Shown: piece by piece, positions 1 through 29,518 of the stretch
Position numbering within the stretch: the first letter of the stretch is position 1
How the letters are laid out: each line of letters starts with the position of its first letter
Origin: a virus
DNA: 64,000 nt
Direction: 5' to 3' (one strand)
IMG/VR virus record: IMGVR_UViG_3300046779_002349
Span: 32,001-96,000 of that record
Made by a program: the position numbers and the translations under genes
The notes under the pieces: generated by a model
What the model was told of the DNA's origin: nothing
What the model saw: only the letters and a program-made list of their open reading frames with translations
Databases searched by the model: none

Positions 1-236
1 TCCGTGAGATCGTTGTCCAGAGATACCAACCTAGGCAACCCCTTCTGATAGATCGTTTCTACAAACTCATCGTATGATCTGACTACAGTCCATTGAAACG
101 CTAATGTCTTAGTGTGTTCAAGTAGTGTTACATTCCGCCCGTGCAAGAATGCCTGACTAGGACTTCTCTGATCATCTAGAAACAAGTTATATCCTTTATT
201 AAATATTTTGTCGTAGTTGGAGTTATATTTTTCCAT
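1..236 (-). CDS. Cyclic-phosphate-processing receiver (cREC-like) domain protein, 3'-truncated by the window edge
   Basis: Not in the ORF track. Manual translation from ATG 236: MEKYNSNYDKIFNKGYNLFLDDQRSP...WTVVRSYDEFVETIYQKGLPRLVSLDNDL. The LFLDDxR / WxxVRSYxEF / SxDxDL pattern is typical of this phage receiver-like family. Confidence 0.7.
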   Translation of the reverse strand, partial: MEKYNSNYDKIFNKGYNLFLDDQRSPSQAFLHGRNVTLLEHTKTLAFQWTVVRSYDEFVETIYQKGLPRLVSLDNDLT

Positions 237-238
237 GT

Positions 239-787
239 CTACTTTTCTGTATGCGTCTCCTTTTCCTCCGTGCCAAGACATAATTTTTCTTCTTTTTCTT
301 CTAAGTTGATTAATTCAAATCTTCCGTATTTTCCCGTGTAACTTCCCCAAGGGCTTAATCCAAAGAATTTTCCTATGCATGTTAAAATTAATTTAAGTTC
401 ATCATCTGTTGGAGGTCTTAACCCATTAATTTTTGTCGTTTTAGGTAGCTTATTGAGAACTAGTAACTCCAAGGTCAGGACGCTACCTCCACGAATAGCC
501 TCATGACTCACGCTCTTTTTTTGTCCAGATATCTTGTCTGTATATTTGCGATTATACAAAACAAAAGTAGGTCTTCTAATAGGAAGAATTTCTACTACAA
601 AATCAGGATCTACCAAATGATCTAATCTCATTAAACAAATAGCTTCCTCTAAAGCCCATCTAAACACGTCGTTGTTCAAATACATCGTACTAGAATCGTT
701 AGTTCTTTCAAACCGTTTGACCCCAGTGCCGTCTTCCTTGTCTCCAAGTAAAGGAGACTCTAGCCTTATTTTTGCAATTTTGATCAT
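239..787 (-). CDS. Stand-alone RAMP (Cas7/Csm3-like) superfamily protein
   Basis: N-terminal strand KIRLESPLLG, internal EAIRGGSVLTLEL, and C-terminal Gly-rich loop GLSPWGSYTGKYGRFEL match RAMP hallmarks. Start is probably ATG 787 (the track extends to 829). Confidence 0.55.
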   Translation of the reverse strand: MIKIAKIRLESPLLGDKEDGTGVKRFERTNDSSTMYLNNDVFRWALEEAICLMRLDHLVDPDFVVEILPIRRPTFVLYNRKYTDKISGQKKSVSHEAIRGGSVLTLELLVLNKLPKTTKINGLRPPTDDELKLILTCIGKFFGLSPWGSYTGKYGRFELINLEEKEEKLCLGTEEKETHTEK

Positions 788-842
788 AATATTAATCTCG
801 AGGACATGCTTCACTAAATAATGAAGCATGTCCAGATTTTTT

Positions 843-3341
843 TTATAAATGGATACTGGTAGTGTAAGCAGAGCTCAAAGTTTCCTTGTGGTCGCAGATA
901 ATCAACTGCATGTCGGCAGCTTCTAGTTCTGGACGAATTTTCACTAAGAAATCTCTAAGGTCATCTACACCAGTTTCGTCGACATGATTAGATGGTTCAT
1001 CAAGAATCACAAATCCTAGGTTGGGTACCAGTACTTGCTGCACAGCCATAATAAACGCTAGACATAGACGCACCCTTTGACCCCCAGACATATGTCCTTG
1101 AGGCAGCCAGTAGTCTTCGCCTGTATCATGACGTTTAAACTGGAATCTAAGAGGATTGTCCTCGTCTTGTCGAATCTCGAACTGTACGTTTAACTTCTGC
1201 AGGTTTTCTTTAGTAGTCTGAATGAGATTCTCAAACTTAGCGGTTACATAAGCCTGTGGAATACCTTCGCGACTAAACTGATCTTTGAGTACCGTCAATT
1301 CTGCAATGACCGCCAATATAGGACCCGCTTCTTCTCTTTGTTTAAAAAGGAGTTCTAGATCCTTCCGAAGATTGTCACAGACCGCCTTATTAATTCCAAG
1401 GCTTTGCGTGTGAAAATCTTTCTTATTAAAGAACTCTCTAAGGGCTTTTACCTTATCACGCATTTGTGGTATGTGCGCGAAATCTAGAGGTAACGAATCT
1501 AGTAGGGCAATAAGCTTTTCTTCCGTACTCGCAATTTGTTCCGCAACAAAAGAAGTGGCAGATTCTGCCAATTTGTGCTCTTCTGTTGCTTTTTGAAATG
1601 CTTCTACTAACTTTCTCTCCTCCTCGGTTACCTGAGTTATCGATTGTGTTTTAAGAGATTCAATTTCTTTTCTTACCTGCCCAACTACACCATTAATATA
1701 TTGAGTGTAAGAATCTAGATCAAGCTTCGACACATTAGTTCTAATCTCTACAAGATCCCAACTTTTAGCTGTATCCACTAGAGACTGAACAAGCCGAGCT
1801 GTCTGATCTTCGTGGGTAGCTATGTCTAGAACCAAGCGGTCAAGTGAATCTTTTATATGGTTAGCACGCCCTAAATACTCTTTTATAATTACATTCCTGT
1901 GGATAAACTCACAGATGTTATCTGGGATTTGTGTAATTGATCTCAGAGTATTCAGCCTCTGCGTATTGCTTGCAATGTCCCCCTGTATAACACCAAGCTG
2001 ACTTTTTAACTGTTTTCCACTCTCCAGAAGAGCCTCTGCTCCATTTTTGAGTTCCTCCAGTTTTTGCTTCTGCGCTTTAACCACCAGCTCAGGAACTACA
2101 GACCCACAAACCGTACAGTTCAAATCCTGACAGTCACTTGCGTCTGCATAAATATGCATGGAATTAATCTCGGCGGTTAGAGTTGCGTACTTATCCCGCT
2201 TTTTCTGAATCTTCTCCTGTAGTTCAATTTCCTTTGCCTTATACAACTCCAATCGCTGTAACACCTCGGGAATAAGGCGATCGCGACTCTCGATATAGGA
2301 TTCGTAATTAGCTAAGGTGAATGTATCCACCGGACAGATTTTGCAAAATTCAGAGATCAGATTTCTAACCTCTGGAGAAGTAGTAGACAACGTGTCTTCC
2401 CATTTTTTCAATTTTTCTAAGTTAGTCTTAATCATATTGATGGTACTCAAGATTGTACCAGTCAACACTTTCTCTTTACTTTGTAAATTAATGATGAGGC
2501 CATTAATATCACTCTTTCCTGAGTCTAGGAGTAGGCGATTTTGAATTTCGCTAATCTGATTGTTTCCGTTTAAAGAATTAAGTTTTTCCTTCAACTTCAA
2601 CATATCCATAGACTTGTGGCGTAATTGGATATCTAGATTTTCTAGCATCAGAAGAAGACTCTCTGCATTACTCAGAGATTCTCTATCAATCTTAGGTAAA
2701 TTATTAAGCTCTTCTTCAATTGCTTTACCTTCATTAATTTTAACAACTACTTGTTCCTCCAGGGCTTGAATCCTATTATTAAGCATCGGATCAATTCTAG
2801 CGGATAAGTTATTAATCTTTGCAGCAATTGCTTTATAAGCGTCCTGCAAATGTCCGATGTCTAGAATCTTAATAAGCAACTTTTCCTGCTCTGCTGCTGT
2901 GCCGAATAGAATATTCTTTAGATCTCCTTGAGGGATATAGAGAATATTTTCCAATGTACTTACATCAGTACCAAGAATGTTACCAATCTGCTCGTCTACT
3001 TGATCTGCATAAGTATACGTATTTCCGTTACTGAGAGTAAGCAACCGCTCACTACCTTTTACCGCTAGAGTACGAGAGATAGTAAACGATTCCGACTGCC
3101 TAGTAAACTGAGCTTCAATTTCAGCCGATTTTGCCCCACCAGGTAATCCGTAGTGGCGGATGTAGTCGGATGCTGTTTTCTTCTGTGGGAGCGTACCACG
3201 GAGGCAGTAGGCGATTCCGGTGAGTAGTGTAGTCTTCCCAGCGCCATTAGCTCCAGTAAAACCAACGATATTACCTTCCAGAGTAATATCCTTCTCCTTG
3301 TGACCTGCCCAATTTTTTAATTTTAGTTTATCTAATTTCAT
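843..3341 (-). CDS. sbcC: SbcC/Rad50-like SMC ATPase (recombination nuclease subunit)
   Basis: Walker A GANGAGKTT, long coiled coil with CTVC zinc hook, signature MSGGQR, Walker B ILDEPSNHVD; adjacent to an SbcD-like gene. Confidence 0.92.
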   Translation of the reverse strand: MKLDKLKLKNWAGHKEKDITLEGNIVGFTGANGAGKTTLLTGIAYCLRGTLPQKKTASDYIRHYGLPGGAKSAEIEAQFTRQSESFTISRTLAVKGSERLLTLSNGNTYTYADQVDEQIGNILGTDVSTLENILYIPQGDLKNILFGTAAEQEKLLIKILDIGHLQDAYKAIAAKINNLSARIDPMLNNRIQALEEQVVVKINEGKAIEEELNNLPKIDRESLSNAESLLLMLENLDIQLRHKSMDMLKLKEKLNSLNGNNQISEIQNRLLLDSGKSDINGLIINLQSKEKVLTGTILSTINMIKTNLEKLKKWEDTLSTTSPEVRNLISEFCKICPVDTFTLANYESYIESRDRLIPEVLQRLELYKAKEIELQEKIQKKRDKYATLTAEINSMHIYADASDCQDLNCTVCGSVVPELVVKAQKQKLEELKNGAEALLESGKQLKSQLGVIQGDIASNTQRLNTLRSITQIPDNICEFIHRNVIIKEYLGRANHIKDSLDRLVLDIATHEDQTARLVQSLVDTAKSWDLVEIRTNVSKLDLDSYTQYINGVVGQVRKEIESLKTQSITQVTEEERKLVEAFQKATEEHKLAESATSFVAEQIASTEEKLIALLDSLPLDFAHIPQMRDKVKALREFFNKKDFHTQSLGINKAVCDNLRKDLELLFKQREEAGPILAVIAELTVLKDQFSREGIPQAYVTAKFENLIQTTKENLQKLNVQFEIRQDEDNPLRFQFKRHDTGEDYWLPQGHMSGGQRVRLCLAFIMAVQQVLVPNLGFVILDEPSNHVDETGVDDLRDFLVKIRPELEAADMQLIICDHKETLSSAYTTSIHL

Positions 3342-4453
3342 ACGATGTGTGGAATTTTATCCTGAACAAACTTTTCTACTACCTTTTCAAAGTTACTCGT
3401 TTTTAAGCACAATTCTGTAGCTACGTCAACTAGACTAGTTCCAGAAAGGCGATCTGCTACTAGCTCAGGTAATGTAATAGTACCGCTTTTTCTTTCTGTA
3501 TTTGTAACTACAGTAGAAGGAGCTTCATTGGAGTAACGTACAATGTCGTTATACTTTCCTTCTCTTGTGTTTAACGCAGATTTAAACTGATCGAATAAAT
3601 AGAATCTTTCGTCTAGATAATACTTCAAGTTGATCAATAGAGGTTCGTTTGTTGTGAGAACCTGGTGAATAATATTTGCTGTGACATCTGGGCAGTAAAG
3701 ATCGGCGTCGATAAATGGTCTAGTAATTAGAGGAATTTCTACCATAGCCAATGTATCAAAGTCAACTATTGTACAGGACTTAGCTGGAGGCTCCAAAACT
3801 CCGCTAGCCATTTCAATAGGTCCAGGATACCCACAAAGAATTTTATTTCCATTGGTTCTAGTTTGCTCAAAGTACTGTCGCTTATGGATATCTCCAAATA
3901 GAAACAGTTTTGTGTTCAAGTGCTCCGAATACTGGATGAACTCATTAAGAGAAATGTAGTTTCCATTATCGAATCCTGCACACTCCTTCATGCTCCCGTG
4001 CCAGACAATAATGTCAATTTGCTCAGTAAGTCGGGCTAGATCCTCTTCGATTTTCTTTCTGCTGGTTTCTAGAACCCCTCTAATTTTTACTCCTTTAAAG
4101 TCTACCGTAGTGTCGTCAATTGTGATAATACCCCGATCATTATGTTTCTTGTTTAGAGATATCCAGGATGGGTCGTCCTGATCGTGATTTCCTGTAATGG
4201 TGAACATCGGAATACCAGCTTCTACTAGCATATCGTGAATTTCCATTAATTGGTGAATTACAATAGATGGTGGTCTCTTCTTGTCTAAGATATCGCCACC
4301 ATTAATAATACAATCTATCTTTCCTTGTCTGTGAAGTAGAATAGCGTCATTTACTAGGCGTTTTGCAGCGGCGAAGAACTCTAGACCTCTTTCGTAGTTT
4401 CCGTACTGAGTGTCGCGTAAGTGCCAGTCTGCTGTATGTAATATTTTTATCAT
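3338..4453 (-). CDS. sbcD: SbcD/Mre11-like metallophosphoesterase nuclease
   Basis: Motifs HTADWH, GGDILD, GNHD, GDIH, YPGP; overlaps the sbcC start by 4 nt. Confidence 0.92.
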   Translation of the reverse strand: MIKILHTADWHLRDTQYGNYERGLEFFAAAKRLVNDAILLHRQGKIDCIINGGDILDKKRPPSIVIHQLMEIHDMLVEAGIPMFTITGNHDQDDPSWISLNKKHNDRGIITIDDTTVDFKGVKIRGVLETSRKKIEEDLARLTEQIDIIVWHGSMKECAGFDNGNYISLNEFIQYSEHLNTKLFLFGDIHKRQYFEQTRTNGNKILCGYPGPIEMASGVLEPPAKSCTIVDFDTLAMVEIPLITRPFIDADLYCPDVTANIIHQVLTTNEPLLINLKYYLDERFYLFDQFKSALNTREGKYNDIVRYSNEAPSTVVTNTERKSGTITLPELVADRLSGTSLVDVATELCLKTSNFEKVVEKFVQDKIPHIV

Positions 4454-4454
4454 G

Positions 4455-4907
4455 TTACAATGTTATCGTTGTCTTACTTAAGTTTAATTTCTTAGAGTTA
4501 TGTAGAAGCGTAAAGTCCATGGTTTCTGAAAGAATAAATCTGCCTGGTATATTTATTCCGTTTTCTTTTAAATTATGTGTAGTAAATAAACATGCGTTAT
4601 GCGGCATAGAATTTAAAAACTGTACAAATGTAGGAACGGATACAGAACCAATGTCTAAATACGGGTATGCGTAATCATTTTGATTCCTAGTATCCCCGTC
4701 TATATGCAGGTTCAACCCGTAAGCTGCATGCATATAAAACTTAGGAGCACTAACAGAAGTGTTTGTGGAATGTCTTATACCGACACCCGACTTAATCCAA
4801 TGCGTAATAATGGACAGCTCTTCTTGGGTAAATAGAAGTAAAGTGTTACCTGTACCTCTTTTAAATATATCCATAATTGGGAAATAAATTTTTTTATCGT
4901 CACTCAT
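4455..4907 (-). CDS. Hypothetical protein, tandem paralogue family (copy 5)
   Basis: Shares DIFK, YPY and the C-terminal LNLSKTTITL with its neighbours. Confidence 0.75.
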   Translation of the reverse strand: MSDDKKIYFPIMDIFKRGTGNTLLLFTQEELSIITHWIKSGVGIRHSTNTSVSAPKFYMHAAYGLNLHIDGDTRNQNDYAYPYLDIGSVSVPTFVQFLNSMPHNACLFTTHNLKENGINIPGRFILSETMDFTLLHNSKKLNLSKTTITL

Positions 4908-5350
4908 AATATTATAGTTGTTTTACTTAAGTTTAATTGCTTTTCGTGTCTTAGCACCCACAAATCTTTGTACAGAGTACAAGAAATCCCAGCTTTAGCT
5001 AATTCGGAAAATTCTTCTTCTCTTTTTTCGTAGGCAATCAAAACAGTTCTTGGGGGTAATTTTTTAATTGCCGCGCATAAATCATAACCTTCAGTTTGCG
5101 AAGGTGCGTAAGGATAAAATCGATCGCGTACATGGTCCTCCAAGTCTATAGTTAAATGATCTTTGCTGTGCTCAGTAATGTAACGTGCAACTGTGTGTGC
5201 CGCTACAGTATTAATACCAAATCTAGCCATCCCTGCAGCTTTAAAAGCATTCGTTACAACCTCAAGTTCTGCCTCTGACAGCAGCTCAAGCTCTGTTTCT
5301 GATTTACATTTTAATACGTCGAATACACACATGTTAAATACTAAGCTCAT
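4904..5350 (-). CDS. Hypothetical protein, tandem paralogue family (copy 4)
   Basis: FDVLK, YPY, LP, C-terminal LNLSKTTIIL; 4-nt overlaps with neighbours. Confidence 0.75.
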   Translation of the reverse strand: MSLVFNMCVFDVLKCKSETELELLSEAELEVVTNAFKAAGMARFGINTVAAHTVARYITEHSKDHLTIDLEDHVRDRFYPYAPSQTEGYDLCAAIKKLPPRTVLIAYEKREEEFSELAKAGISCTLYKDLWVLRHEKQLNLSKTTIIL

Positions 5351-5802
5351 AATATTATCGTTGTTTTGCTTAAGTTTGTATAATCCCCATGTAATACGAA
5401 CGAATTTCCATACCTACGACACGCAACCCCTGCTTGAATTACTTCTGAGAAAGCCTCCGTTTGTGCGTAAGCAATTAAAACGAACCTGGTAGGTAATGTT
5501 TTAATAAGTTTGACTAAATCACAAGGATCTATGACTACATAAGGGTACAATCTATTCGCTTCCTGATCGGTAAAGGGTATGCTTAACTGTGCATCGCTGT
5601 AGTGATAAACGCAACGAGCAATTCTAGCTACACGTAAATAATTACTACTCAAGGATTCCGGAATACCGGCATCTTTAAAAATGTGGCCCACCTGCACAAG
5701 CTCAGATTCTGTCAGCACTGTCAGCTGCGTCGGTGTCTTAAATTTTAATATGTCAAATACCTTATATTCTATTATACCTGCTACAGACTCAAAGGACTTC
5801 AT
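5347..5802 (-). CDS. Hypothetical protein, tandem paralogue family (copy 3)
   Basis: FDILK, YPY, LP, C-terminal TNLSKTTIIL. Confidence 0.75.
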   Translation of the reverse strand: MKSFESVAGIIEYKVFDILKFKTPTQLTVLTESELVQVGHIFKDAGIPESLSSNYLRVARIARCVYHYSDAQLSIPFTDQEANRLYPYVVIDPCDLVKLIKTLPTRFVLIAYAQTEAFSEVIQAGVACRRYGNSFVLHGDYTNLSKTTIIL

Positions 5803-6242
5803 AATATTATCGTTTTCTTACTTAAATTTAATAGTCTTTTATTACGTAGTACAGTTAAGTTAGGGCTTACGTAATACACAAACCCCTTATATTCCTCTTT
5901 AATGTAATCTGTAGCATCCGAGTGAGTAACTAAGCATATGTCTGGGGGCAATCTTGATATTAATTGGTGAAGCTCAATAACTTCTCGTTTAATATAAATT
6001 AGATAAGGGTATGTTATATCTAGGTGATTGTCGTCGATAAGCACTTTAAATTTAGTGGAATTTGCCTCTAAAAGTGCTTTAATACTGCTCATGGGTACTT
6101 TAGAGTGCCCGAAACTCTTAATTCCTGATTTCTGAAAAATACGGTTTAATTCTTCTAATTCTGAGCTATTTAAAAATACAAAAGAGTTATCTGATTGTAG
6201 TTTAAATATATCGAACATTGGGTAATTTACTCCTAGACTCAT
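5799..6242 (-). CDS. Hypothetical protein, tandem paralogue family (copy 2)
   Basis: FDIFK, YPY, LP, C-terminal LNLSKKTIIL. Confidence 0.75.
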   Translation of the reverse strand: MSLGVNYPMFDIFKLQSDNSFVFLNSSELEELNRIFQKSGIKSFGHSKVPMSSIKALLEANSTKFKVLIDDNHLDITYPYLIYIKREVIELHQLISRLPPDICLVTHSDATDYIKEEYKGFVYYVSPNLTVLRNKRLLNLSKKTIIL

Positions 6243-6718
6243 AACGTTATGTTCACTGATTTGTGTATTAATGTTTTATTATTTTTAAGTAAAAAAGCAT
6301 CGGAGAATGAATTAATAACAAACGACTCTACATTATATTCTGCAGCTTTATTTGCATATGCAAGAACAGCTATGTCTGTTGGTAATTTTGATATTATTGC
6401 AGGGAGTGTAGAACTACCGCATATTTTTTGAGCGGGGGGAAAGGCGGTTTGAGGTAAACAGAATACACGAGTATCTCCTGGTAGTCGGGAAGAACACTTT
6501 ATATTTCTACTTTTTAACCCACTTACAACTTCTCTCCATTCTACGTTGAATCCCCTACTTTCTACTCTGCTTTTGTTTATGTTCAGAACTAAAGCTATTA
6601 CGTTTATAATATTTTCATAGTCTTCCTTAAGAGGATTAGAAACAACAAGATTGTTGTCTATTTTAAAAAAGTCACATAATGGTATAGGTAACATAATCTT
6701 TCTCATAGTTTCACTCAT
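6239..6718 (-). CDS. Hypothetical protein, divergent member of the tandem paralogue family (copy 1)
   Basis: CDFFK, KLPTDI, C-terminal LIHKSVNITL; similar length to the others. Confidence 0.65.
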   Translation of the reverse strand: MSETMRKIMLPIPLCDFFKIDNNLVVSNPLKEDYENIINVIALVLNINKSRVESRGFNVEWREVVSGLKSRNIKCSSRLPGDTRVFCLPQTAFPPAQKICGSSTLPAIISKLPTDIAVLAYANKAAEYNVESFVINSFSDAFLLKNNKTLIHKSVNITL

Positions 6719-6935
6719 TTACGTCTACGTTTTTGTTAATCATTTCTTTTACAACATATAAAGCCATGGACACTCCCTGCTCATATACATCATCTAGGTC
6801 GTCTTGTTTAACAGCGGTCAACAATGCTTTCTGAGACTCAATTTCAGCAATAACTTCTCTAATAATTTTTTCTCTCATTTTTGCATTATTGCGTTTACCG
6901 ATGTAATTTGTGAGGATGTTTGTGATCGCTTTCAT
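6711..6935 (-). CDS. Hypothetical protein
   Basis: Probable start MKAITN at 6935 after an A-rich leader; the longer track ORF (to 7112) overlaps 6961..7197. Confidence 0.5.
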   Translation of the reverse strand: MKAITNILTNYIGKRNNAKMREKIIREVIAEIESQKALLTAVKQDDLDDVYEQGVSMALYVVKEMINKNVDVNE

Positions 6936-6960
6936 AATGTTTGTTTTCTTTTTGTCCTGG

Positions 6961-7197
6961 TTAGTTATAAAGTCCTTTTTTGTCTTCACCAAGAGAGAAA
7001 TTAATCTCTCTTCCAAAGAGGTATACAGCAAAGCCATACATACCCCAGTAAGGGTCGTAGTGTGCCCTTCTAAATCTAGGAAGATACCTAAATATAGGGT
7101 TTCCTCCATCACAAAATACTCTTATGTATTTTGTCCAAATAATTTTTTTGGCGTGTAATGGATAAGTGAACACGCGCAGAATAAAATAACGTAGCAT
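6961..7197 (-). CDS. Hypothetical protein
   Basis: 78-aa ORF that fits the gene packing between its neighbours. Confidence 0.4.
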   Translation of the reverse strand: MLRYFILRVFTYPLHAKKIIWTKYIRVFCDGGNPIFRYLPRFRRAHYDPYWGMYGFAVYLFGREINFSLGEDKKGLYN

Positions 7198-7237
7198 AAA
7201 TCCGGCTTATGCGGGACAGCTGTTAAAATACTTATTT

Positions 7238-7717
7238 TTACCAACTAGCCAAATAAAACAGTCTCCTCTTACTAAAATCAAAAGATTTTAGTAAGTTAGA
7301 AATTATTTTATAAGCAGAATCTATTTGTGCTGTGTAGTATTCGTCTTTGTCCGTAGATCCGAAAAAGAATCCTGATATAGGTTCAAGGGATTCAATTTCT
7401 TCCCCCCTTTTTACTAAAATAAGATCATTTAATAGTTGCCTTAAATGTTCAATATTTACTTCGTAACGGGAACAGTCGTCTACACCATTTTGAACATTTG
7501 TAACGAACCAATTATGTAGTCCATTAAATTTTCTCCAATAGGCTTCCTCTGTAAATATAGAGTAATAACCGTCTAGACCTGGATACGTATATAACGGAAA
7601 GAATTCCTCTAATTCCTGATTATTTGGATTTAAATTACCGGCTTCTCCAATGGCCTCTAACTCTTCTATTGTGTGGTCCGTTCTGTTTGCGGACTCTAGG
7701 TACATGTCTAATCCCAT
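7238..7717 (-). CDS. Conserved phage hypothetical protein (MGLDMYL family)
   Basis: MGLDMYL start, YWRKxNxxHNWFV, GVDDC, GFFFGSTD, terminal YxASW: a widespread phage family. Confidence 0.75.
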   Translation of the reverse strand: MGLDMYLESANRTDHTIEELEAIGEAGNLNPNNQELEEFFPLYTYPGLDGYYSIFTEEAYWRKFNGLHNWFVTNVQNGVDDCSRYEVNIEHLRQLLNDLILVKRGEEIESLEPISGFFFGSTDKDEYYTAQIDSAYKIISNLLKSFDFSKRRLFYLASW

Positions 7718-8593: not shown

Positions 8594-10474
8594 ATGCCTC
8601 AAGTTGACTTTTATAAGCTTATCACAAAAGACAGTGATTTTAAAGACAAGATTAATAAAATCTTGAAATTGATTCACCTTGAGGATGTTAAGTATAACAG
8701 AGGATCAGGTTCCGCACTGAAGCGGAGAGACATGTATATGCACGATCTTTTGAAATTGTGCAACTACAATTTAGGAATTTTAATTCCTATGTTTTTTCCT
8801 AAATATATCAAAGGTAAGCCATTGGACCCTCGAAGGAGACCATTTAGCTTTCTTATGACTGATATCTTTAGTCACGGATTTACGGCTATTAGAGGTAGTC
8901 GTCAGATCGCCAAGTCCACTACTTTTGTAGCTAGGCAACTGATTAAATCCATTTTGTTCAATAACTTTAAAAGCATGTATGTATGTCCTCACGGTGAGCA
9001 TAAGAAAACCTACGCCAACCGTTTTGCTGAGATGGAACTTGCTTGTCCTATTGTTCAAGGGTTACTTAAACAAAACAGTAATTTAAGAAACAATCTATTT
9101 TATAAGCAGTACTCTAATGGTTCTGAAACCAATATTGTTAACTGCTTGGAAAACGTAAGTCAGGCTCGTTCAAAGACTACTGACGAGCTGCTTTATGACG
9201 AGTATCAGCTTTTTGACATTGACCTAGAGGCTGATATTTTCCAATGTCAGTCTGCCAGTGATACTCCTATGACAGTTTATGCAGGTACTAGTACAACTAT
9301 TGATTCTCCACTCGAGTTTCGTTATCAACAAGGAAGTCAGGCTCAATGGTTAGTAAAGTCTATGGACGGAAAGCAGTGGTTAGACTTCTCTGATGCCGAT
9401 ACGCTTATTAGCTGCATTAAACCTCAAGGATTGATTTGTCCATACACCAGTAAACCATTGGATGTAAACGACGGAGAGTTGGTTCATAAATTTGATTCTA
9501 GGCGAGAACTCGGTATGGTGTCCATGCATGTTCCCCAGTTAATTATTTACGATAAAGTTCGTGATGCTTTGGAGTGGGAAAAGATCTATAAAGCATTTCT
9601 GGAAGATAGAGATGATAAGAAGCATAAGTTTCTAGAAGAGGTCGGGGGAATTCCTTCAGAAGAAGGCTCTCGAGAAATTACGGAACAAGATCTAAGAGAT
9701 ATTTGCGTTTTGGGTAGTAGTGCTGAACTTTACGAAAAGGCCCAAACTGGTTATTACTCCAAACTAGTGAGTGCCTGCGACTGGGGTGGTTCTGACGATG
9801 TTCCTAACTACAAAAATAGAAAATCTTTCACTGTGCACAGTATTCTTGGTGTAGCCCCTGACGGAGGTATAGACATTATTTATATACGTCAGTACGATGG
9901 TATGGACTTCCCAACTATTTCTAAGCACATCATTAAGACTCATAAATCTTATGGGTGTATGGCTATGGCTGCTGACTATGGTGTGGGTATGGCTTACAAC
10001 TACCTTATGAAAGAAAACATGAACTCAAATAATTTCTTTATGTTCTCTCTGGTGGGTAGTGGAAAAACAATAAAAATTCTGGATAAGGGAGCTCCAAATC
10101 ACTTCGCTCTAAATAAGACTGAGTCCCTAAGCCAGTTGTTTATTGATATCAAAAATGGACCTCCTAAGATTAGGTGTTATGATTGGGCTGAGTCTGGCCC
10201 TAGATTACAAGAATTTTTAAATCTGTACCGTGTGTTCAATGAAGGAAGCTCTATGAATAGTTTCCATTATCATAAACTAGCGTCGAAACCAGACGACTCT
10301 TTAATGAGTGTTAATTTTGGTTACACTTTGCTTCGTATCATCTTGGGCGAGTCGATTGTATCTAATCAAGTTGATGTCGATCTACATCAAGCGGAAGTCC
10401 TTCATAGAACAGGACTCAACAAAGACTTTGATGATTTCTCAGCTGGAGTATTTTCATCTATTGTTTCTGGGTAG
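8594..10474 (+). CDS. terL: Terminase large subunit
   Basis: Walker A-like RGSRQIAKSTT, Walker B LLYDEYQ, coupling motif AGTS, RNase H-like nuclease motifs ACDWGG, AADYGVG, KPDD. Confidence 0.85.
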   Translation: MPQVDFYKLITKDSDFKDKINKILKLIHLEDVKYNRGSGSALKRRDMYMHDLLKLCNYNLGILIPMFFPKYIKGKPLDPRRRPFSFLMTDIFSHGFTAIRGSRQIAKSTTFVARQLIKSILFNNFKSMYVCPHGEHKKTYANRFAEMELACPIVQGLLKQNSNLRNNLFYKQYSNGSETNIVNCLENVSQARSKTTDELLYDEYQLFDIDLEADIFQCQSASDTPMTVYAGTSTTIDSPLEFRYQQGSQAQWLVKSMDGKQWLDFSDADTLISCIKPQGLICPYTSKPLDVNDGELVHKFDSRRELGMVSMHVPQLIIYDKVRDALEWEKIYKAFLEDRDDKKHKFLEEVGGIPSEEGSREITEQDLRDICVLGSSAELYEKAQTGYYSKLVSACDWGGSDDVPNYKNRKSFTVHSILGVAPDGGIDIIYIRQYDGMDFPTISKHIIKTHKSYGCMAMAADYGVGMAYNYLMKENMNSNNFFMFSLVGSGKTIKILDKGAPNHFALNKTESLSQLFIDIKNGPPKIRCYDWAESGPRLQEFLNLYRVFNEGSSMNSFHYHKLASKPDDSLMSVNFGYTLLRIILGESIVSNQVDVDLHQAEVLHRTGLNKDFDDFSAGVFSSIVSG

Positions 10475-10524: not shown

Positions 10525-10579
10525 ATTGCTTTTAATTGACTGCGTTGATAATTGATTGTGCAGTTGTTTGTTTGGTAAG

Positions 10580-10701
10580 TGGTATCCCGCCCCAAGACAA
10601 CCCGAAAAGGTTCGAGTCATACGATCTTGGGCTATCCAGATATTAAGCCGCCCGAATCAATCGGACCAAAGCCATCTGGTCGGTGCGTAGTCACGCGGGA
10701 T
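10580..10701 (-). ncRNA. tRNA-like structured RNA ending in A-CCA (122 nt)
   Basis: 7-bp acceptor-like stem ATCCCGC/GCGGGAT plus ACCA; internal helices CCAGAT/ATCTGG and CCCAAGA/TCTTGGG; no canonical T loop or anticodon loop. Confidence 0.55.
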
Positions 10702-10889
10702 ATTTGGTAGGGGGAGATTGTTAATAGGTACGAAACTTATTGTTCGTACCAGAAGAGAAATGGGATTATTGTTGGGGCGTACAGAACATTATCTGCGCGA
10801 ATAGCGAACCCAGTAAAATAATTTTTAATGGCTTTTTTGCTGAACAGTAGTTTGTAGCGTATGGTTGTGTTTTTCATGGTAGGGAAAAT

Positions 10890-10974
10890 TGGTGGCCTGG
10901 GCACCTCGGCATTATTGTAGTCAAGCGTCCGCATTGTGGGATAGTTCGCTAATTATTCTACTCATCCGCAGACC
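10890..10974 (-). ncRNA. Small CCA-ended structured RNA (85 nt), possibly Y-RNA-like
   Basis: Terminal helix GGTCTG(C)GG/CCCAGGCC plus ACCA; 3' trailer ATTTTCCC resembles the ATTTCCC trailer of the tRNA at 11538. Confidence 0.45.
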
Positions 10975-10984
10975 GTTTTAAATA

Positions 10985-11208
10985 GGTGAAGCAGGTGGGG
11001 CGTAACTCCCACTGGACTGCACTATTGTGCATCGACATTTTATGAACGTTGAACTGGATTACCCAGTGGCTCTGTCTTATCCCCAATACACTGGGTTTTC
11101 TATTCGGTCAGAGTCCAGTCTTACGTCTTAGCATCTCGGTGTATCTCCGCTAAGACTTGTCAACCAGTCTCATCTTCCTGCGTGTCTACTTTCCACGCCG
11201 CTGCTTCA
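10985..11208 (-). ncRNA. Large tRNA-like RNA (~224 nt) with a structured insertion
   Basis: Acceptor-like stem GAAGCAG/CTGCTTC plus ACC, D-arm-like GCGTG..CACGC, T-arm-like GTGGG/CCCAC, internal hairpins GTCTTAGC/GCTAAGAC, CCCAGTG/CACTGGG, TGCAC/GTGCA. Confidence 0.55.
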
Positions 11209-11537
11209 TTTGTTGTGTATTACCACATTCCAACCCCCTCAATAGACTCTCACTTAAAAGTGAGGATTTTCTTTCTTTACGGCAGCCTCATTGCGGAGGC
11301 TGGAATGTGGTGACATACGATAAAGCTGGTATGTCAGCAGCTGCACATGTGCTTTTCCTACTTATTGTCCAGGTTCTTCACTTTGCTTATGGTTGAGCTT
11401 CAGACTCTAGCCTCAACGGACACCCTAAACATACGTCTTAGTGACGAAATGGCCTCAATGCAATAAGTAAAAACTTTTATCGGTTTTCTCTGATTTTCAT
11501 ATTATTTGTACTTCATATTATTTGTTGTTGGGGAAAT

Positions 11538-11613
11538 TGGTACTCCGACTGGGGCTCGAACCCAGGACCAAGGCGTTATGAGCACCCTGCTCTAACCGCT
11601 GAGCTATCGGAGT
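11538..11613 (-). tRNA. tRNA with CAT anticodon, probably tRNA-Ile2 (lysidine type) rather than Met
   Basis: ACTCCGATAGCTCAGCGGTTAGAGCAGGGTGCTCATAACGCCTTGGTCCTGGGTTCGAGCCCCAGTCGGAGTACCA: full cloverleaf with encoded CCA. C4:G69 and C5:G68 pairs are as in Ile2. Confidence 0.9.
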
Positions 11614-11617
11614 ATAG

Positions 11618-11694
11618 TGGCGTGCTCATCAGGACTTGAACCTGAAACCCACAGCTTAGAAGGCTGTTGCTCTATCCAATTGAGCTATGAGCAC
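11618..11694 (-). tRNA. tRNA-Arg(TCT)
   Basis: GTGCTCATAGCTCAATTGGATAGAGCAACAGCCTTCTAAGCTGTGGGTTTCAGGTTCAAGTCCTGATGAGCACGCCA: cloverleaf, anticodon TCT, encoded CCA. Confidence 0.95.
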
Positions 11695-11702
11695 GTATTT
11701 TT

Positions 11703-12300
11703 CAGAATAGTTTTATTTTGTTATTCATACAATATTACTTGCTGAACTATTCTTATCAGATGGGATAACATTACAATTTAAAAGATTGTTGTTATTGTTT
11801 GCTGAACCCATCTTATCAGATTTCTTGTTATGAACCCAAATCATAGTTTTGTGCTTGCTGAAGAAATCTTATACTAATTTTTAAAACCTGCAATAAATAT
11901 TTTCAGAATAGTTTTATTTTGTTATCCATACAATATTACTTGCTGAACTATTCTTATCAGATTTCTTACCATGAATACCAATTTTCATATTTTTGTGGTT
12001 GCTGAAGAAATCTTATACTCAAATTTTAAATTTGCAACAAATATTTTCAGAATAGTTTTTTTTTGTTTTGCAGACAATATTATTTGCTGAACTATTCTTA
12101 TCAGATCTCGTAACCATGCCTTATGAACTTGATTTGCTGGAGAGATCTTATTTTTTTTTAAATTGGGCAGGATAGTTAGTTAGGGAGTGGCATTAAGCCA
12201 CTATTATTCATATTATTTTTACTTGCTGAACTATCCTTTTCAGATGGGGTAACATTACAATTTAAAAGATTGTTGTTATTGTTTGCTGAACCCATCTTAT
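11703..12300 (-). repeat. Array of nine 50-73 nt hairpin units (ATAAG-stem-TTCAGCAA-variable-stem'-CTG), putative small-RNA array
   Basis: Units at 11703-11756, 11757-11816, 11817-11872, 11904-11957, 11958-12016, 12048-12101, 12102-12151, 12168-12240, 12241-12300. Terminal stems differ in sequence but always pair; CAGCAA is invariant. Confidence 0.85.
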
Positions 12301-12302
12301 AT

Positions 12303-12332
12303 GCTAGTGGGGGCTCCCACACCCCCACTAGC
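12303..12332 (-). other. 11-bp GC-rich hairpin between the TROVE/vWA stop codon and the array
   Basis: GCTAGTGGGGG/CCCCCACTAGC with no U-tract on the minus strand; more likely a processing or stability hairpin than a terminator. Confidence 0.5.
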
Positions 12333-12342
12333 TCCCATTAAC

Positions 12343-13989
12343 CTACACTTCCATGTCACGAATGATTGGTTGATCCAAGCAGTTTGAGGCTGCTACAACC
12401 GCATCATCCGCAGAATTTATAAACTTGATTACAGCAGGTGAAAACCCGCCAAAGTAATAGACGTTACGTGTAGGCCCGTACGTCTCAAACTTTTTAGTTT
12501 GATTTGCTGGGCTTGCTACGTCCCAGAAAACAAACTTGAATTCATCAACGAATTCCTCAGAAAAGAAAGCTTTTAGCTTAGCCTTTGCTGCGTCGAAGTT
12601 GGTATTATTAATGCCAACCCTATTGAACTCACCGTCCGAAATGCAGATAATGCCTTTTGGAAAGTGGGATTCAGGAACTCCTTGATTTTTAAGATTGATG
12701 AAAAGATCAATCACCTTTTGAAAATCTGTGCTGGTGTAGCATCTCGTGCGGTCGTTGAGGTATTTCTCAACAACATTTGCGCCTTGCCACTCATGCAGAA
12801 TAGCAGAATCATGAAACTCAATCCAGCTATTCTGAAATGTACCGGTAAGGAATTCAGAGAATAGTAGCGCGAGCGACTTAGCTACGTGATTTGCTGTGAC
12901 GGTCAAGCCGGTAGCCATACAGCCCATAGAGCTGGAGGTGTCACGAACTACTATCCAAGGAAATGGATTTTCTTCGCACTTACTTTTAAGTTCCTCGAAC
13001 TGCGCGATAATCAAATCGCGAATTTCAGGATTAGGATGTCTACCTCCTTGTAGTGGGGACAACACGTCAAAAACAAAATCGGTAGTCTTCACAGACTGGC
13101 CTGACTTTACTTTTGATGAAATGAACTCGGAGAACTTACTGCTCAAACCTGTACCCTTCAGGAATGTTTTCGATTTCACCAGTATGCTCAACGCTTTACC
13201 GTGGATCTTGTCGAAATCAATTTCCTGAAACTTGCCTTGCGAGATAAGCTGTTGCCATTGGTGTGCCTTACCAGAAGCTTTGAGTTGCCGATACTGTTTA
13301 TAGGTTTTTCCTGTTGGATCCTCCTTTACTCCAAATAAGGCAGAGCAAATGTACTTGGCAATCAGATTTTTAGCCTGAGCCTCAACAGTAGTGCACTTGC
13401 TCTTGGCTTTAATGGATGGAAGGTATTTGCGAATCAGGTGGGTTTGCTTGTCATCCTGCAATCCATCCAGAATTGTAGAAATGATAAACTGCCAATTAAG
13501 CACTCGCCCATCCCAGCCATTGTAGCTGAGGTCTGTAACCAACATTGTAAAAACATCCTTCCAAGAACCCAGGGCAATGAATGCTTTCAAGTTTTTGTTG
13601 AACGTCTCTGGATGGTTTACTGCCAACCAGATCATACGAAGAATAGATTCGTTCTTCAGGCCTTCACCATTTACCATGCCTACAGCTTCACCTTCGTGTA
13701 CTGTATTGCGTTGAACAGCTCGGAGGTATCCCGTGAACTGTACAGCTTGTGTAGCATTGTGTGCCCACAGGATTGACATGTCAGTAGCAACGTCTTTAAA
13801 CTTTCTTGGTGCAATATAACTACCGCACGATTTGAGCTGATCGACTAATGGGTCGCCAGAAGTGTTAAACTTCTTAGCTCCGTTCTGAGATCGAACTTGA
13901 GCTCCCATTTTTTTACCTTGGGTGATAAATGCATTACCCACTACTTGTGCGGCTTGTACAGGTGCCGCTGCCTTTTTTACGTCGAACAT
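12343..13989 (-). CDS. TROVE/vWA-domain protein (Ro60-related, DUF2828-like)
   Basis: Helical N-terminal region with GxGxK, GSWKD and RKYLPS motifs; C-terminal vWA with MIDAS VRDTSSSM, STDF, ISDGEF, FWDV. Confidence 0.75.
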   Translation of the reverse strand: MFDVKKAAAPVQAAQVVGNAFITQGKKMGAQVRSQNGAKKFNTSGDPLVDQLKSCGSYIAPRKFKDVATDMSILWAHNATQAVQFTGYLRAVQRNTVHEGEAVGMVNGEGLKNESILRMIWLAVNHPETFNKNLKAFIALGSWKDVFTMLVTDLSYNGWDGRVLNWQFIISTILDGLQDDKQTHLIRKYLPSIKAKSKCTTVEAQAKNLIAKYICSALFGVKEDPTGKTYKQYRQLKASGKAHQWQQLISQGKFQEIDFDKIHGKALSILVKSKTFLKGTGLSSKFSEFISSKVKSGQSVKTTDFVFDVLSPLQGGRHPNPEIRDLIIAQFEELKSKCEENPFPWIVVRDTSSSMGCMATGLTVTANHVAKSLALLFSEFLTGTFQNSWIEFHDSAILHEWQGANVVEKYLNDRTRCYTSTDFQKVIDLFINLKNQGVPESHFPKGIICISDGEFNRVGINNTNFDAAKAKLKAFFSEEFVDEFKFVFWDVASPANQTKKFETYGPTRNVYYFGGFSPAVIKFINSADDAVVAASNCLDQPIIRDMEV

Positions 13990-28043: not shown

Positions 28044-29518
28044 TATTCAGGAAGTTGGAATCCACTAAATGTTACAGCATGAAATGTCATCGCTGTACGA
28101 GCGTCTAAAGCGGAGCTAAGACTGCTGATATTATGCGATACTGAGTACAAAAAGCCAGAAAAAAGTTCTTTTCCTTCTTCATCTGCAACTCTGTATCTAT
28201 TTCCTGGAATTACATTAAAATTTAATGTAGAAGAAGTTTCTACGACATAGTTCGCCAATGCTATATTTTTATATGTAGTTTTTCCGAACTCTTCTACAAT
28301 TTCAGAAACTGGACCTTGGATTTCGTTTTTAATCAGGTCGTTCAAATTCACAATAGAATCCTTACGGCGTGACAATTCTAAATCTCTAGAAGTATTTTTT
28401 GACTGAGTATTATATTCGTACAGAGTAGACGGTATCCATGAGGGTATGGACACTGGGAAATTATTTCCATTTATCTTAGGTGGGTTCTTTGGGAAAACTC
28501 CATAGGTGGGATTGTCTCCTAAAAATTCAAATACGTTTTCCTGATTTTTTTTATCCTTACGATTCAGCTTGCTGGGTTGTCCGGAAACAATTACCCGCTG
28601 TATCGGAAGCATGTTTAAACTAGAGCTGCTGAACGATGCGCCTACTAGACGGAGATCTGCAGTCTGAGCCTCGTCGACTTTATACCTGTGCGACTTAAAA
28701 TATCCGTATACAGAATCTCCTACAAACGGAGGTACGAAGAAAGATTGGAATTCCTCTCCTAACGCTACAAGAGAATAAAAGAATTGCCTATCAATACTAA
28801 ATATTGTGCTCTTTAAAGCATTGAACACAGAGGTATTCAGTGTGCGTAGTGCGTCTGCTGTGAAATTACTAAAGCCGTTATAGGTCGGACCACCTAACCC
28901 CTCTGAGTCTACTAATATTCTTTCAATAATAGGGTACACCTCCATGTTCCTTTCGTGCAGCTCAAGCAAACTTTGCTTTGATACAGCATCATTAAACTTG
29001 GCGTTCTCCATTATTTTTGGGAAGTCCTCATGTCTCTTTTTGAGAAGAGCATTCAGCATAACAAACACATTGCTGTACTGCTTACCAATCAACTCCGGTT
29101 TATCTCTATTTGTAGCGTAAGCCAGCGAATAAATGTGCGGTACATAACTATTTACTTGTTCTATCTCATGCACCATTTTTGCACCATTAGCGTAGAAAGA
29201 GGAATACACTCTTCTAGTAGGACCTAGTACATTTCCAGAAAATGCGTGCCAGTTTTCAGATCCGTTTGCTCCGGTTACACTCACCCTTGCCGTGAGTTTA
29301 TTCCCTTCCCCAGCAAAAGCTAGTTTTTGAAACTCCGCCATTTTAAGAGCCTCTTCTCCCACGAGTACTGGTTTCGCAGTTTCTCCACTATCTTGATGTA
29401 AATTTATTTGAGCCGTGGGTATTTCGCCAACGGTGTAAGACAGTGTTATACCGTCTATTGTGGCATCTTCTAAACCAGCTCCTGATACGCTTACATTTAC
29501 TTGTTCTAAATTAACCAT
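28043..29518 (-). CDS. Putative baseplate hub protein
   Basis: Lies after the tape measure gene; IPTAQINL near the N-terminus and PG...GFLYSVSHNI near the C-terminus resemble gp27/hub folds. Confidence 0.5.
   Translation of the reverse strand: MVNLEQVNVSVSGAGLEDATIDGITLSYTVGEIPTAQINLHQDSGETAKPVLVGEEALKMAEFQKLAFAGEGNKLTARVSVTGANGSENWHAFSGNVLGPTRRVYSSFYANGAKMVHEIEQVNSYVPHIYSLAYATNRDKPELIGKQYSNVFVMLNALLKKRHEDFPKIMENAKFNDAVSKQSLLELHERNMEVYPIIERILVDSEGLGGPTYNGFSNFTADALRTLNTSVFNALKSTIFSIDRQFFYSLVALGEEFQSFFVPPFVGDSVYGYFKSHRYKVDEAQTADLRLVGASFSSSSLNMLPIQRVIVSGQPSKLNRKDKKNQENVFEFLGDNPTYGVFPKNPPKINGNNFPVSIPSWIPSTLYEYNTQSKNTSRDLELSRRKDSIVNLNDLIKNEIQGPVSEIVEEFGKTTYKNIALANYVVETSSTLNFNVIPGNRYRVADEEGKELFSGFLYSVSHNISSLSSALDARTAMTFHAVTFSGFQLPE

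Follow-up and report, generated by a model that had tools for sequence, protein, structure and literature searches.

A Vipr-like RAMP gene, with no guide-RNA array found, is coupled to SbcCD in a clade of large uncultured phages

RAMP proteins are so far known solely as holders of guide RNAs, in the class 1 effectors of CRISPR systems and, since 2026, in the VIPR systems of phages. What, then, does a solitary RAMP-like gene do beside the SbcCD genes of a phage? We addressed this question in a stretch of viral DNA of 64,000 nucleotides (nt), hereafter the window, which covers positions 32001-96000 of a 150-kb IMG/VR phage record (IMGVR_UViG_3300046779_002349, here G000) with an estimated completeness of 77%. 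The sequencing runs that matched window DNA were freshwater metagenomes, with no RNA run among those listed. Our analysis revealed that the RAMP gene holds a fixed third place in an SbcD-SbcC-RAMP module in a clade of large uncultured phages. Judged by its predicted structure and by profile comparison, the product appears to be a minimal single-RRM protein, distantly homologous to Vipr and structurally nearest to the Cas7 group (Csm3/Cmr4). The module consists of the following features.

239..787, minus strand: RAMP (Cas7/Vipr-like) gene, 182 amino acids (aa); start from relatives, identity from an AlphaFold2 model, Foldseek and VIA searches and hhalign comparison with Vipr-like families
802..833, minus strand: 12-bp perfect hairpin (GGACATGCTTCA...TGAAGCATGTCC) in the SbcC-RAMP spacer, covering the ATG at 829; from sequence and fold prediction
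843..3341, minus strand: SbcC/Rad50-like ATPase, 832 aa; Pfam AAA_23, SMC_N and SbcC_Walker_B; PHROG 77
3338..4453, minus strand: SbcD/Mre11-like nuclease, 371 aa; Pfam Metallophos; PHROG 100

SbcD precedes SbcC, and the stop codon of SbcC, at 843, lies 55 nt upstream of the RAMP gene on the same strand. An earlier note on this DNA had described the RAMP gene as fused into the SbcCD operon; it is indeed the same-strand neighbour of SbcC, adjacent and not fused, and no fused form occurred among 150 listed relatives. As in phage and bacterial SbcCD (Mre11-Rad50), the two neighbours are canonical, with all catalytic motifs, and stand in a replication/recombination block. SbcC carries Walker A, a CxxC zinc hook (C409, C412), the SGGQ signature, Walker B and the H-loop, all invariant in a 13-sequence alignment (A6). 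The phosphoesterase motifs of SbcD (D9, H11, GD54, GNHD88-91, H152 and H190) are invariant columns in its own alignment (A5). The counterparts of SbcCD/Mre11-Rad50 in the model phages are gp46/gp47 of T4 and D12/D13 of T5. No accessory protein of Mre11-Rad50 that adopts a RAMP fold is known to us, and a literature search, evaluated by titles, returned nothing that links the RAMP/Cas7 fold with phage SbcCD beyond CRISPR reviews and SbcCD genetics.

The RAMP gene is strictly co-inherited with one SbcC clade. SbcD and SbcC were found upstream on the same strand in all ten RAMP-centred loci, which derive from viral contigs and one metagenome-assembled genome, with two of them (L005 and L006) being near-identical. 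Metagenome searches gave 18 loci in all, two of them being contigs of the earlier viral loci. SbcC was directly upstream in 13 of the 14 that had at least 400 nt of upstream sequence; the exception, L039, has just 429 nt there, containing a 91-aa open reading frame (ORF), and the remaining four are cut off by the end of the contig. When the search was instead initiated from SbcC, it reached 49 viral contigs, nine of them encountered before, and 33 of the 49 had a RAMP gene downstream on the same strand (E<=1e-3 with a hidden Markov model of A1, an alignment of 125 RAMP relatives). The gene was present in 30/30 contigs whose SbcC matched at a tblastn E<=5e-25, versus 3/19 of those with E>=2e-16. 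Across the 30 close-clade contigs the linkage persists down to ~25% identity in SbcC and ~30% in RAMP, and it is lost with the SbcC clade.

Four loci (L007, L027, L034 and L038) accommodate small unrelated genes between SbcC and RAMP. Those named by Pfam are a GIY-YIG homing endonuclease (L007), which has no homologue in the G000 genome, and an L5 gp82-like gene (L027), and they are mobile or unrelated. Selfish inserts are common in the replication modules of the relatives: the L007 endonuclease (8610-9614) lies between SbcC and RAMP, the SbcD gene of L005/L006 is interrupted (4101-7465, with an N-terminal match at 4101-4844 followed by a 653-aa ORF), and the superfamily 2 (SF2) helicase of L010 (10420-12738) contains Hint/homing-endonuclease domains and is intein-like. 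The 123-nt junction between SbcC and RAMP in the window has a predicted fold energy of -34.8 kcal/mol. A comparison of 20 such junctions revealed no conserved structure, with hairpins in the window, L010 and L011; a conserved RNA in the junction was rejected, as the hairpin is not kept across the 20.

Given that the earlier note had read the protein as RAMP/Cas7-like and had proposed Foldseek comparison of an AlphaFold model with Csm3, Cmr4 and Cas7, we modelled its fold. The AlphaFold2 model, built on A1, had a mean predicted local distance difference test score (pLDDT) of 93.8 and a predicted template-modelling score (pTM) of 0.86. Its topology is β-α-β-β-β-β-α-β (E2-10, H40-53, E65-68, E77-84, E91-99, E104-111, H129-143, E158-165) and includes the RRM/ferredoxin-like core (β1-α1-β2-β3-α2-β4), so that the outcome named in advance as contrary to the reading, a fold of another kind, did not appear. 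The Gly-rich loop IGKFFGLSPWGSYTGKYGRF falls between α2 (H129-143) and the last strand (E158-165), and the predicted long paired strands E77-84/E91-99/E104-111, a candidate thumb between α1 and α2, are covered by the alignments with Csm3. Foldseek returned 114 PDB matches at E<=0.001, the best 35 of which are all CRISPR RAMP-containing entries. Csm3 of type III-A was the top match (6ifl_F; E 4.1e-7, TM 0.59, probability 1.0), and type VII Cas7 was also high. In the VIA wide search of 48,161 chains, which is independent of Foldseek, the first 34 rows were likewise all CRISPR RAMPs (best match 6s6b_I; Z 11.6, root-mean-square deviation 2.9 over 151 residues). In the ESM Atlas, viral clusters without names came first and the nearest named entries were PF03787 RAMPs (TM 0.62); the BFVD fold search gave three viral RAMP-like models at E<=0.001, none of which is named Vipr. 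Based on the model and on these structural matches, the protein is best described as a predicted member of the RAMP superfamily (Cas5/6/7-like).

The minus-strand ORF at 239..829, taken by the earlier note as the gene, is real as a maximal reading frame of 196 aa; its likely start, however, moves inward. The relatives all begin at ORF residue 15 (MIKIAKI...), and the upstream ATG at 829 sits inside the 5' arm of the 12-bp hairpin at 802-833. For these two reasons the true gene is most likely 239..787, starting at the ATG at 787 and encoding 182 aa. Residues below are numbered on a 183-aa query with one extra N-terminal Ile. Among the three RAMP motifs claimed in the note, IRLESPLLG and EAIRGGSVLTLEL occur as described and the G-loop GLSPWGSYTGKYGRF is present, with its claimed spacing being one residue short. 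These motifs are the most conserved columns of A1, beyond chance: L15 (117/125), G16 (114/125), E97 (120/125), G144 (122/125), S146 (121/125), G149 (124/125), G156 (125/125), R157 (118/125) and F158 (119/125). G140 is invariant alongside G156. The most conserved columns of the family are the nucleic-acid-binding elements of RAMPs.

The family is large, associated with viruses and almost wholly metagenomic. Among 1.84 billion cluster representatives (50% identity) there were at least 157 relatives at E<=0.001, with 73 at E<=1e-10; the 150 listed relatives are 114-256 aa long, in a search that had no length filter. Ten sampled members originated from Logan (5), JGI (3), ENA (1) and NCBI (1), and because the sampled members are mostly from Logan and JGI, the family may be rare in the NR-based VIPR census. 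The single RAMP protein had no match in sequence searches of Pfam, PHROGs or PDB, and it found no relatives among viral contigs; a smaller alignment, A3, was used for the profile search of contigs. With all 125 members, Pfam gave only scattered single chance matches and no RAMP match, and PHROGs gave one weak match in 1/125, so that no model of either database covers the family. In GenBank phages, RAMP had no tblastn match at E<=0.01, SbcC none at E<=1e-10, and the 4.5-kb DNA no megablast match. It therefore appears that, at single-sequence sensitivity, the family is essentially absent from cultured phages.

VIPR systems, as described in three 2026 preprints (among them bioRxiv 10.64898/2026.04.26.720920 and 10.64898/2026.04.26.720927), are phage-encoded. 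Each comprises Vipr, which is a minimal RAMP regarded as ancestral, together with vap, a small accessory gene, and vrRNAs. The vrRNAs consist of 9-16 YNNGG pentanucleotide repeats, in which NN reads DNA, skipping one nucleotide. We compared our family with SUSP1 (NC_028808.2), whose vipr gene is at 28474-29061 on the minus strand. The best PDB sequence match of the A1 profile was the 'SUSP1 Vipr protein' (36pp_D), with a weak E of 0.5, at α2 and the G-loop. In hhalign comparisons, A1 matched the SUSP1 Vipr family (A7) with a probability of 87.4% (E 3.6e-6, 54 columns) and the single SUSP1 sequence with 69%. It matched A4, the Vipr-like family of an array-adjacent gene in the related phage G004, with a probability of 92.9% (E 3.8e-7) over 151 columns, near full length. 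A4 and A7 matched each other at 34.5%, more weakly than either matched A1. Based on the alignments with A7 and A4, the protein is a remote Vipr homologue. It resembles Vipr in being phage-encoded and of ~20 kDa, in having a single RRM and no second one, and in a G-loop that reads G-x-G/S-x-W...G-R-F and leads into the last strand.

The G-loop also differs from that of SUSP1 Vipr. According to the 2026 structure preprint, residues D177, W178 and R179 of SUSP1 contact GGY, and substitution of D177 with Ala abolishes silencing. In the A1-A7 alignment, D177 corresponds to P147 (P in 97/125, Q in 18/125) and R179 to G149 (Gly in 124/125), while W178 corresponds to W148 (W 97, F 23, Y 4; aromatic in 124/125). 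Judged by this alignment, just the stacking aromatic of the three GGY-contact residues seems to be kept. Like VIPR systems, the locus has neither cas genes nor a CRISPR array. Unlike them, it lacks both the long intergenic flanks and the small vap-type partner, SbcD and SbcC being the partners conserved beside it, and our scans found no pentanucleotide vrRNA array. Its genes are closely packed, 55 nt separating RAMP from SbcC and the next gene overlapping RAMP, in contrast to the two-gene vipr-vap operon of VIPR. Despite its Vipr-type protein, the RAMP described here fails the VIPR definition. The main text of the VIPR discovery preprint (PMC13142463), supplementary tables aside, does not mention SbcC, SbcD, Mre11 or Rad50, and our search found no literature joining VIPR, vrRNA and SbcC.

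The earlier note had suggested an RNA-guided regulator with a non-CRISPR guide, which is the role of the nearest relatives, the Viprs, and had proposed looking for repeat RNAs around homologues. We scanned for arrays that fit the VIPR vrRNA description, i.e., tandem pentanucleotides (GGY/NN or related) with at least four and usually 9-16 units near the gene, using four detectors. The first, based on phase-locked GG runs, recovered all four SUSP1 vrRNAs; it found no run of at least 6 units within ±10 kb of RAMP in 10 loci or within ±3 kb in 49 SbcC loci, and in the whole 150-kb G000 it found two 4-unit runs, versus 0-2 in 20 shuffles. The second is motif-free and scores three conserved columns of five: SUSP1 scored 26, G000 24 and shuffles 23-24, whereas scores did not exceed 23 in any other locus or in G002, a complete relative of 196.5 kb. 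It misses weak arrays, since the degenerate array of G004 scored just 23. The third measures autocorrelation at lags 5 and 10; controls reached 0.43-0.47 (one of the four SUSP1 arrays 0.33), with G000 at <=0.35, G002 at <=0.34, other loci at <=0.37 and one shuffle at 0.40. The fourth, a pattern scan of whole records, gave 32 matches in SUSP1, none in G001 or G002, two in G003 (control 1) and three in G004. Altogether the scans recovered the four SUSP1 arrays and the G004 array as positive controls, and no pentanucleotide guide array was found in G000, in G002 or around the ~70 related loci. A guide array of the kind that such a regulator would use was not found here.

The three matches in G004, a related 204-kb phage, led to a separate locus ~117 kb from that phage's own SbcCD-linked RAMP. 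In the coordinates of L014 (G004:73001-79000) it contains the following features.

1603-1908: paralogous N-terminal fragment ORF, just upstream of the RAMP-like gene
2019-2687, plus strand: RAMP-like gene with G-loop GLGQWRNSGKGQF; its family model, A4, matches Csm3
2800-3990: 1.2-kb array with period-5 NGY/NN structure after the RAMP-like gene; G autocorrelation 0.41 at lag 5

From its sequence, this locus looks like a full VIPR system. Since G004 has a separate Vipr-like gene with its own array, the array-using job in that phage would belong to another paralogue.

Comparison with the CRISPR proteins gave a similar mixture. The Cas7 group (Csm3, Cmr4 and type VII Cas7) supplies the closest structures (Foldseek E 4e-7, TM 0.55-0.60; VIA Z 9-11.6), with an RRM core and a Gly-rich loop in common, and with a predicted β-hairpin that may be thumb-like. 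Unlike that group, our family shows sequence identity of just 9-16% to it and no Pfam RAMP match, and the gene stands without Cas10, Csm or Cmr partners and without CRISPR RNA (crRNA). The catalytic Asp of Csm3/Cmr4 is located in the β1-α1 loop. A residue of this type is unconserved here, where the conserved LG is followed by D in 43/125 sequences, A in 21, N in 17, S in 15 and E in 10, the equivalence of position being inferred and not derived from superposition. Because Asp follows LG in just 43/125, RNA cleavage by this protein would not be expected. The orphan status given in the earlier note agrees with all of our scans of the window: PHROGs detected no Cas family among the 56 ORFs, Rfam detected two tRNAs only, and no CRISPR-like repeats were found, the sole short-spaced direct repeat being a 12-nt coding repeat at 50.1 kb.

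The note had also offered a structured RNA array ~11 kb away as a candidate ligand. The array exists, beside the two tRNAs, at 11.7-12.3 kb.

11538-11613, minus strand: tRNA-Met
11618-11694, minus strand: tRNA-Arg
11700-12340, minus strand: at least six AT-rich hairpin units sharing TTCAGCAA, in repeat families of 128, 82 and 49 nt
12343-13989, minus strand: gene for a 548-aa protein; PHROG 850 'RNA-binding protein', Pfam DUF2828/DUF7788

The array is directly downstream of the 548-aa protein gene, whose product we take to be Ro60/TROVE-like, and the whole resembles a Ro-type protein of a phage accompanied by Y-RNA-like or tRNA-like partners. Nothing ties the array to RAMP. With no period-5 signal above noise and a Ro60-like gene adjoining it, it was rejected as a specific RAMP partner.

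Which function fits a RAMP that is bound to SbcCD by descent and has no detected array? The explanation that we prefer, holding it with about even confidence, is that the protein binds nucleic acid and assists phage SbcCD when DNA ends are processed and during recombination-dependent replication, and is not a repeat-guided silencer. The conserved surface formed by helix 1, the putative thumb and the Gly-rich loop would hold single-stranded nucleic acid; at DNA ends or hairpins this ligand might be single-stranded DNA or an RNA that no array encodes; and in this way RAMP could serve the phage Mre11/Rad50-type nuclease as an accessory factor. What we infer is that the protein binds nucleic acid, that it cooperates with SbcCD physically or functionally and that it needs no guide. 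Among the three functional guesses of the earlier note, the coupling to one SbcC clade makes its recombination accessory the best fit. Several points weigh against this explanation. An RNA partner remains plausible, since the known relatives of the fold all bind RNA guides, and adjacency can reflect shared expression timing and not shared function. The G000 record is just 77% complete, the gap between positives (0.43-0.47) and shuffled noise (up to 0.40) in period-5 detection is narrow, and guides that are short, degenerate or non-periodic would escape the scans. In addition, the supplement of the VIPR preprint may already classify the present clade.

Some of these points lend themselves to a different explanation, the main rival, a nuclease-armed VIPR-like system in which RAMP polymerises on a guide RNA, encoded elsewhere or aperiodic, and brings SbcCD to competitor or host DNA. 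The homology to both Vipr families (A4 and A7), the retention of RNA-binding elements (helix 1, the G-loop and the aromatic at W148 in 124/125) and the incompleteness of G000 are in keeping with it, as are the predicted nuclease or helicase accessory genes of VIPR types III-V and the non-canonical fixed trinucleotides reported in the VIPR preprint and in a second one, respectively. We nevertheless regard it as rather unlikely: no period-5 array occurred in G000, in the complete G002, within ±10 kb in 10 loci or within ±3 kb in 49 SbcC loci, Pro (97/125) and Gly (124/125) stand in place of SUSP1 D177 and R179, with D177 being a residue whose substitution abolishes silencing according to the structure preprint, and in G004 the array-using job is done by the separate paralogue ~117 kb away.

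RAMP could also be merely co-transcribed with SbcCD, for example as a protein that binds early or middle RNAs transcribed from the replication module and regulates or chaperones them. Phage operons frequently mix functions, unrelated small genes are tolerated between SbcC and RAMP in four loci, and cREC_REC and Rv2179c-like exonuclease genes follow RAMP here. Set against a link to SbcC that holds in 30/30 close-clade contigs despite divergence and is lost with the SbcC clade, while other neighbours such as cREC_REC are unconserved, this account seems to us unlikely. We consider it very improbable that the protein is an anti-defence decoy which sequesters the crRNA of the host or the vrRNA of a competitor, or which disrupts effector filaments by imitating a subunit of Cas7 or Vipr type. 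A solo RAMP encoded by a phage would suit such a role, and one relative, G004, has both a VIPR-like locus and an SbcCD-linked RAMP; counter-defence genes, however, are usually variable accessories, whereas this one is a syntenic core gene of the replication module across divergent phages, and its similarity to any host Cas7 is no closer than fold level. The anti-CRISPR decoy of the earlier note thus found no support.

Should this viral clade of RAMPs be widespread, free of arrays and locked to SbcCD, phage Mre11/Rad50 enzymes would gain a third component that had gone unrecognised, and the clade would become a testable outgroup or intermediate for the proposed path from VIPR to CRISPR, on which guide use could be placed as ancestral or later-acquired. 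A bolder version, which we put forward only tentatively, is that RAMP is a guide-free built-in subunit of a viral Mre11/Rad50-type machine. Were it basal to the array-using Viprs, the RAMP fold of VIPR and CRISPR would have begun as a phage recombination/repair accessory, with programmable RNAs coming later; alternatively, a non-periodic RNA would make SbcCD an RNA-directed nuclease. The small size of the protein (182 aa) and its confident model make it easy to test biochemically.

The SbcD-SbcC-RAMP module sits in a replication/recombination block. The order downstream of RAMP is cREC_REC, Rv2179c-like exonuclease, five small paralogues, SF2 helicase, DnaB-like helicase, an intron-split PolA and a RecA-like gene. 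The features of this part, partly in the coordinates of L013, are listed below.

1..281, minus strand: 5' part of a cREC_REC receiver-like gene, which runs off the window; Pfam PF20274, E 3.3e-8
L013:17213-17806, minus strand: gene for an Rv2179c-like 3'-5' exoribonuclease-type DEDD protein
L013:6348-6574 (G000:20348-20574), minus strand: group I intron between two DNA polymerase A ORFs; Rfam RF00028, 89 bits

With a start at 281, the cREC_REC gene would share 43 nt with the end of the RAMP gene. It follows RAMP in the closest relative, L008, and is not a conserved neighbour in the other nine loci. The annotations of cREC_REC ('cyclic-phosphate processing receiver') and of the Rv2179c-like gene both point to RNA ends. 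The PolA gene is read as split because of the group I intron between its ORFs, of which L013:6580-8565 encodes the exonuclease and uracil-DNA glycosylase part and L013:5143-6315 the polymerase part.

On either side of the SbcD-SbcC-RAMP-cREC-exonuclease block there is a run of five tandem paralogues of ~150 aa, at 4455-6718 of the window and at L013:14959-17216 (G000:28959-31216), both on the minus strand. Within each run the proteins are 25-44% identical, and nearly all have a similar C-terminal tail (...NLSKTTIIL, ...EKKTITL, ...TVKITL); they had no Pfam or PHROG match and no homologue in the 10 related loci. Some VIPR arrays are interspersed with hammerhead ribozymes; elsewhere in the record, at G000:121-134 kb, neither a hammerhead ribozyme (Rfam, gathering threshold) nor a period-5 array was detected. 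Between the large terminase gene (8594-10474, plus strand) and the tRNAs, the window has ~1 kb without a long ORF (10540-11500). This region had no Rfam match even at E<=1, contains GC-rich stems that include a 35-nt inverted repeat at 11209-11324, and may be an undescribed large structured RNA.

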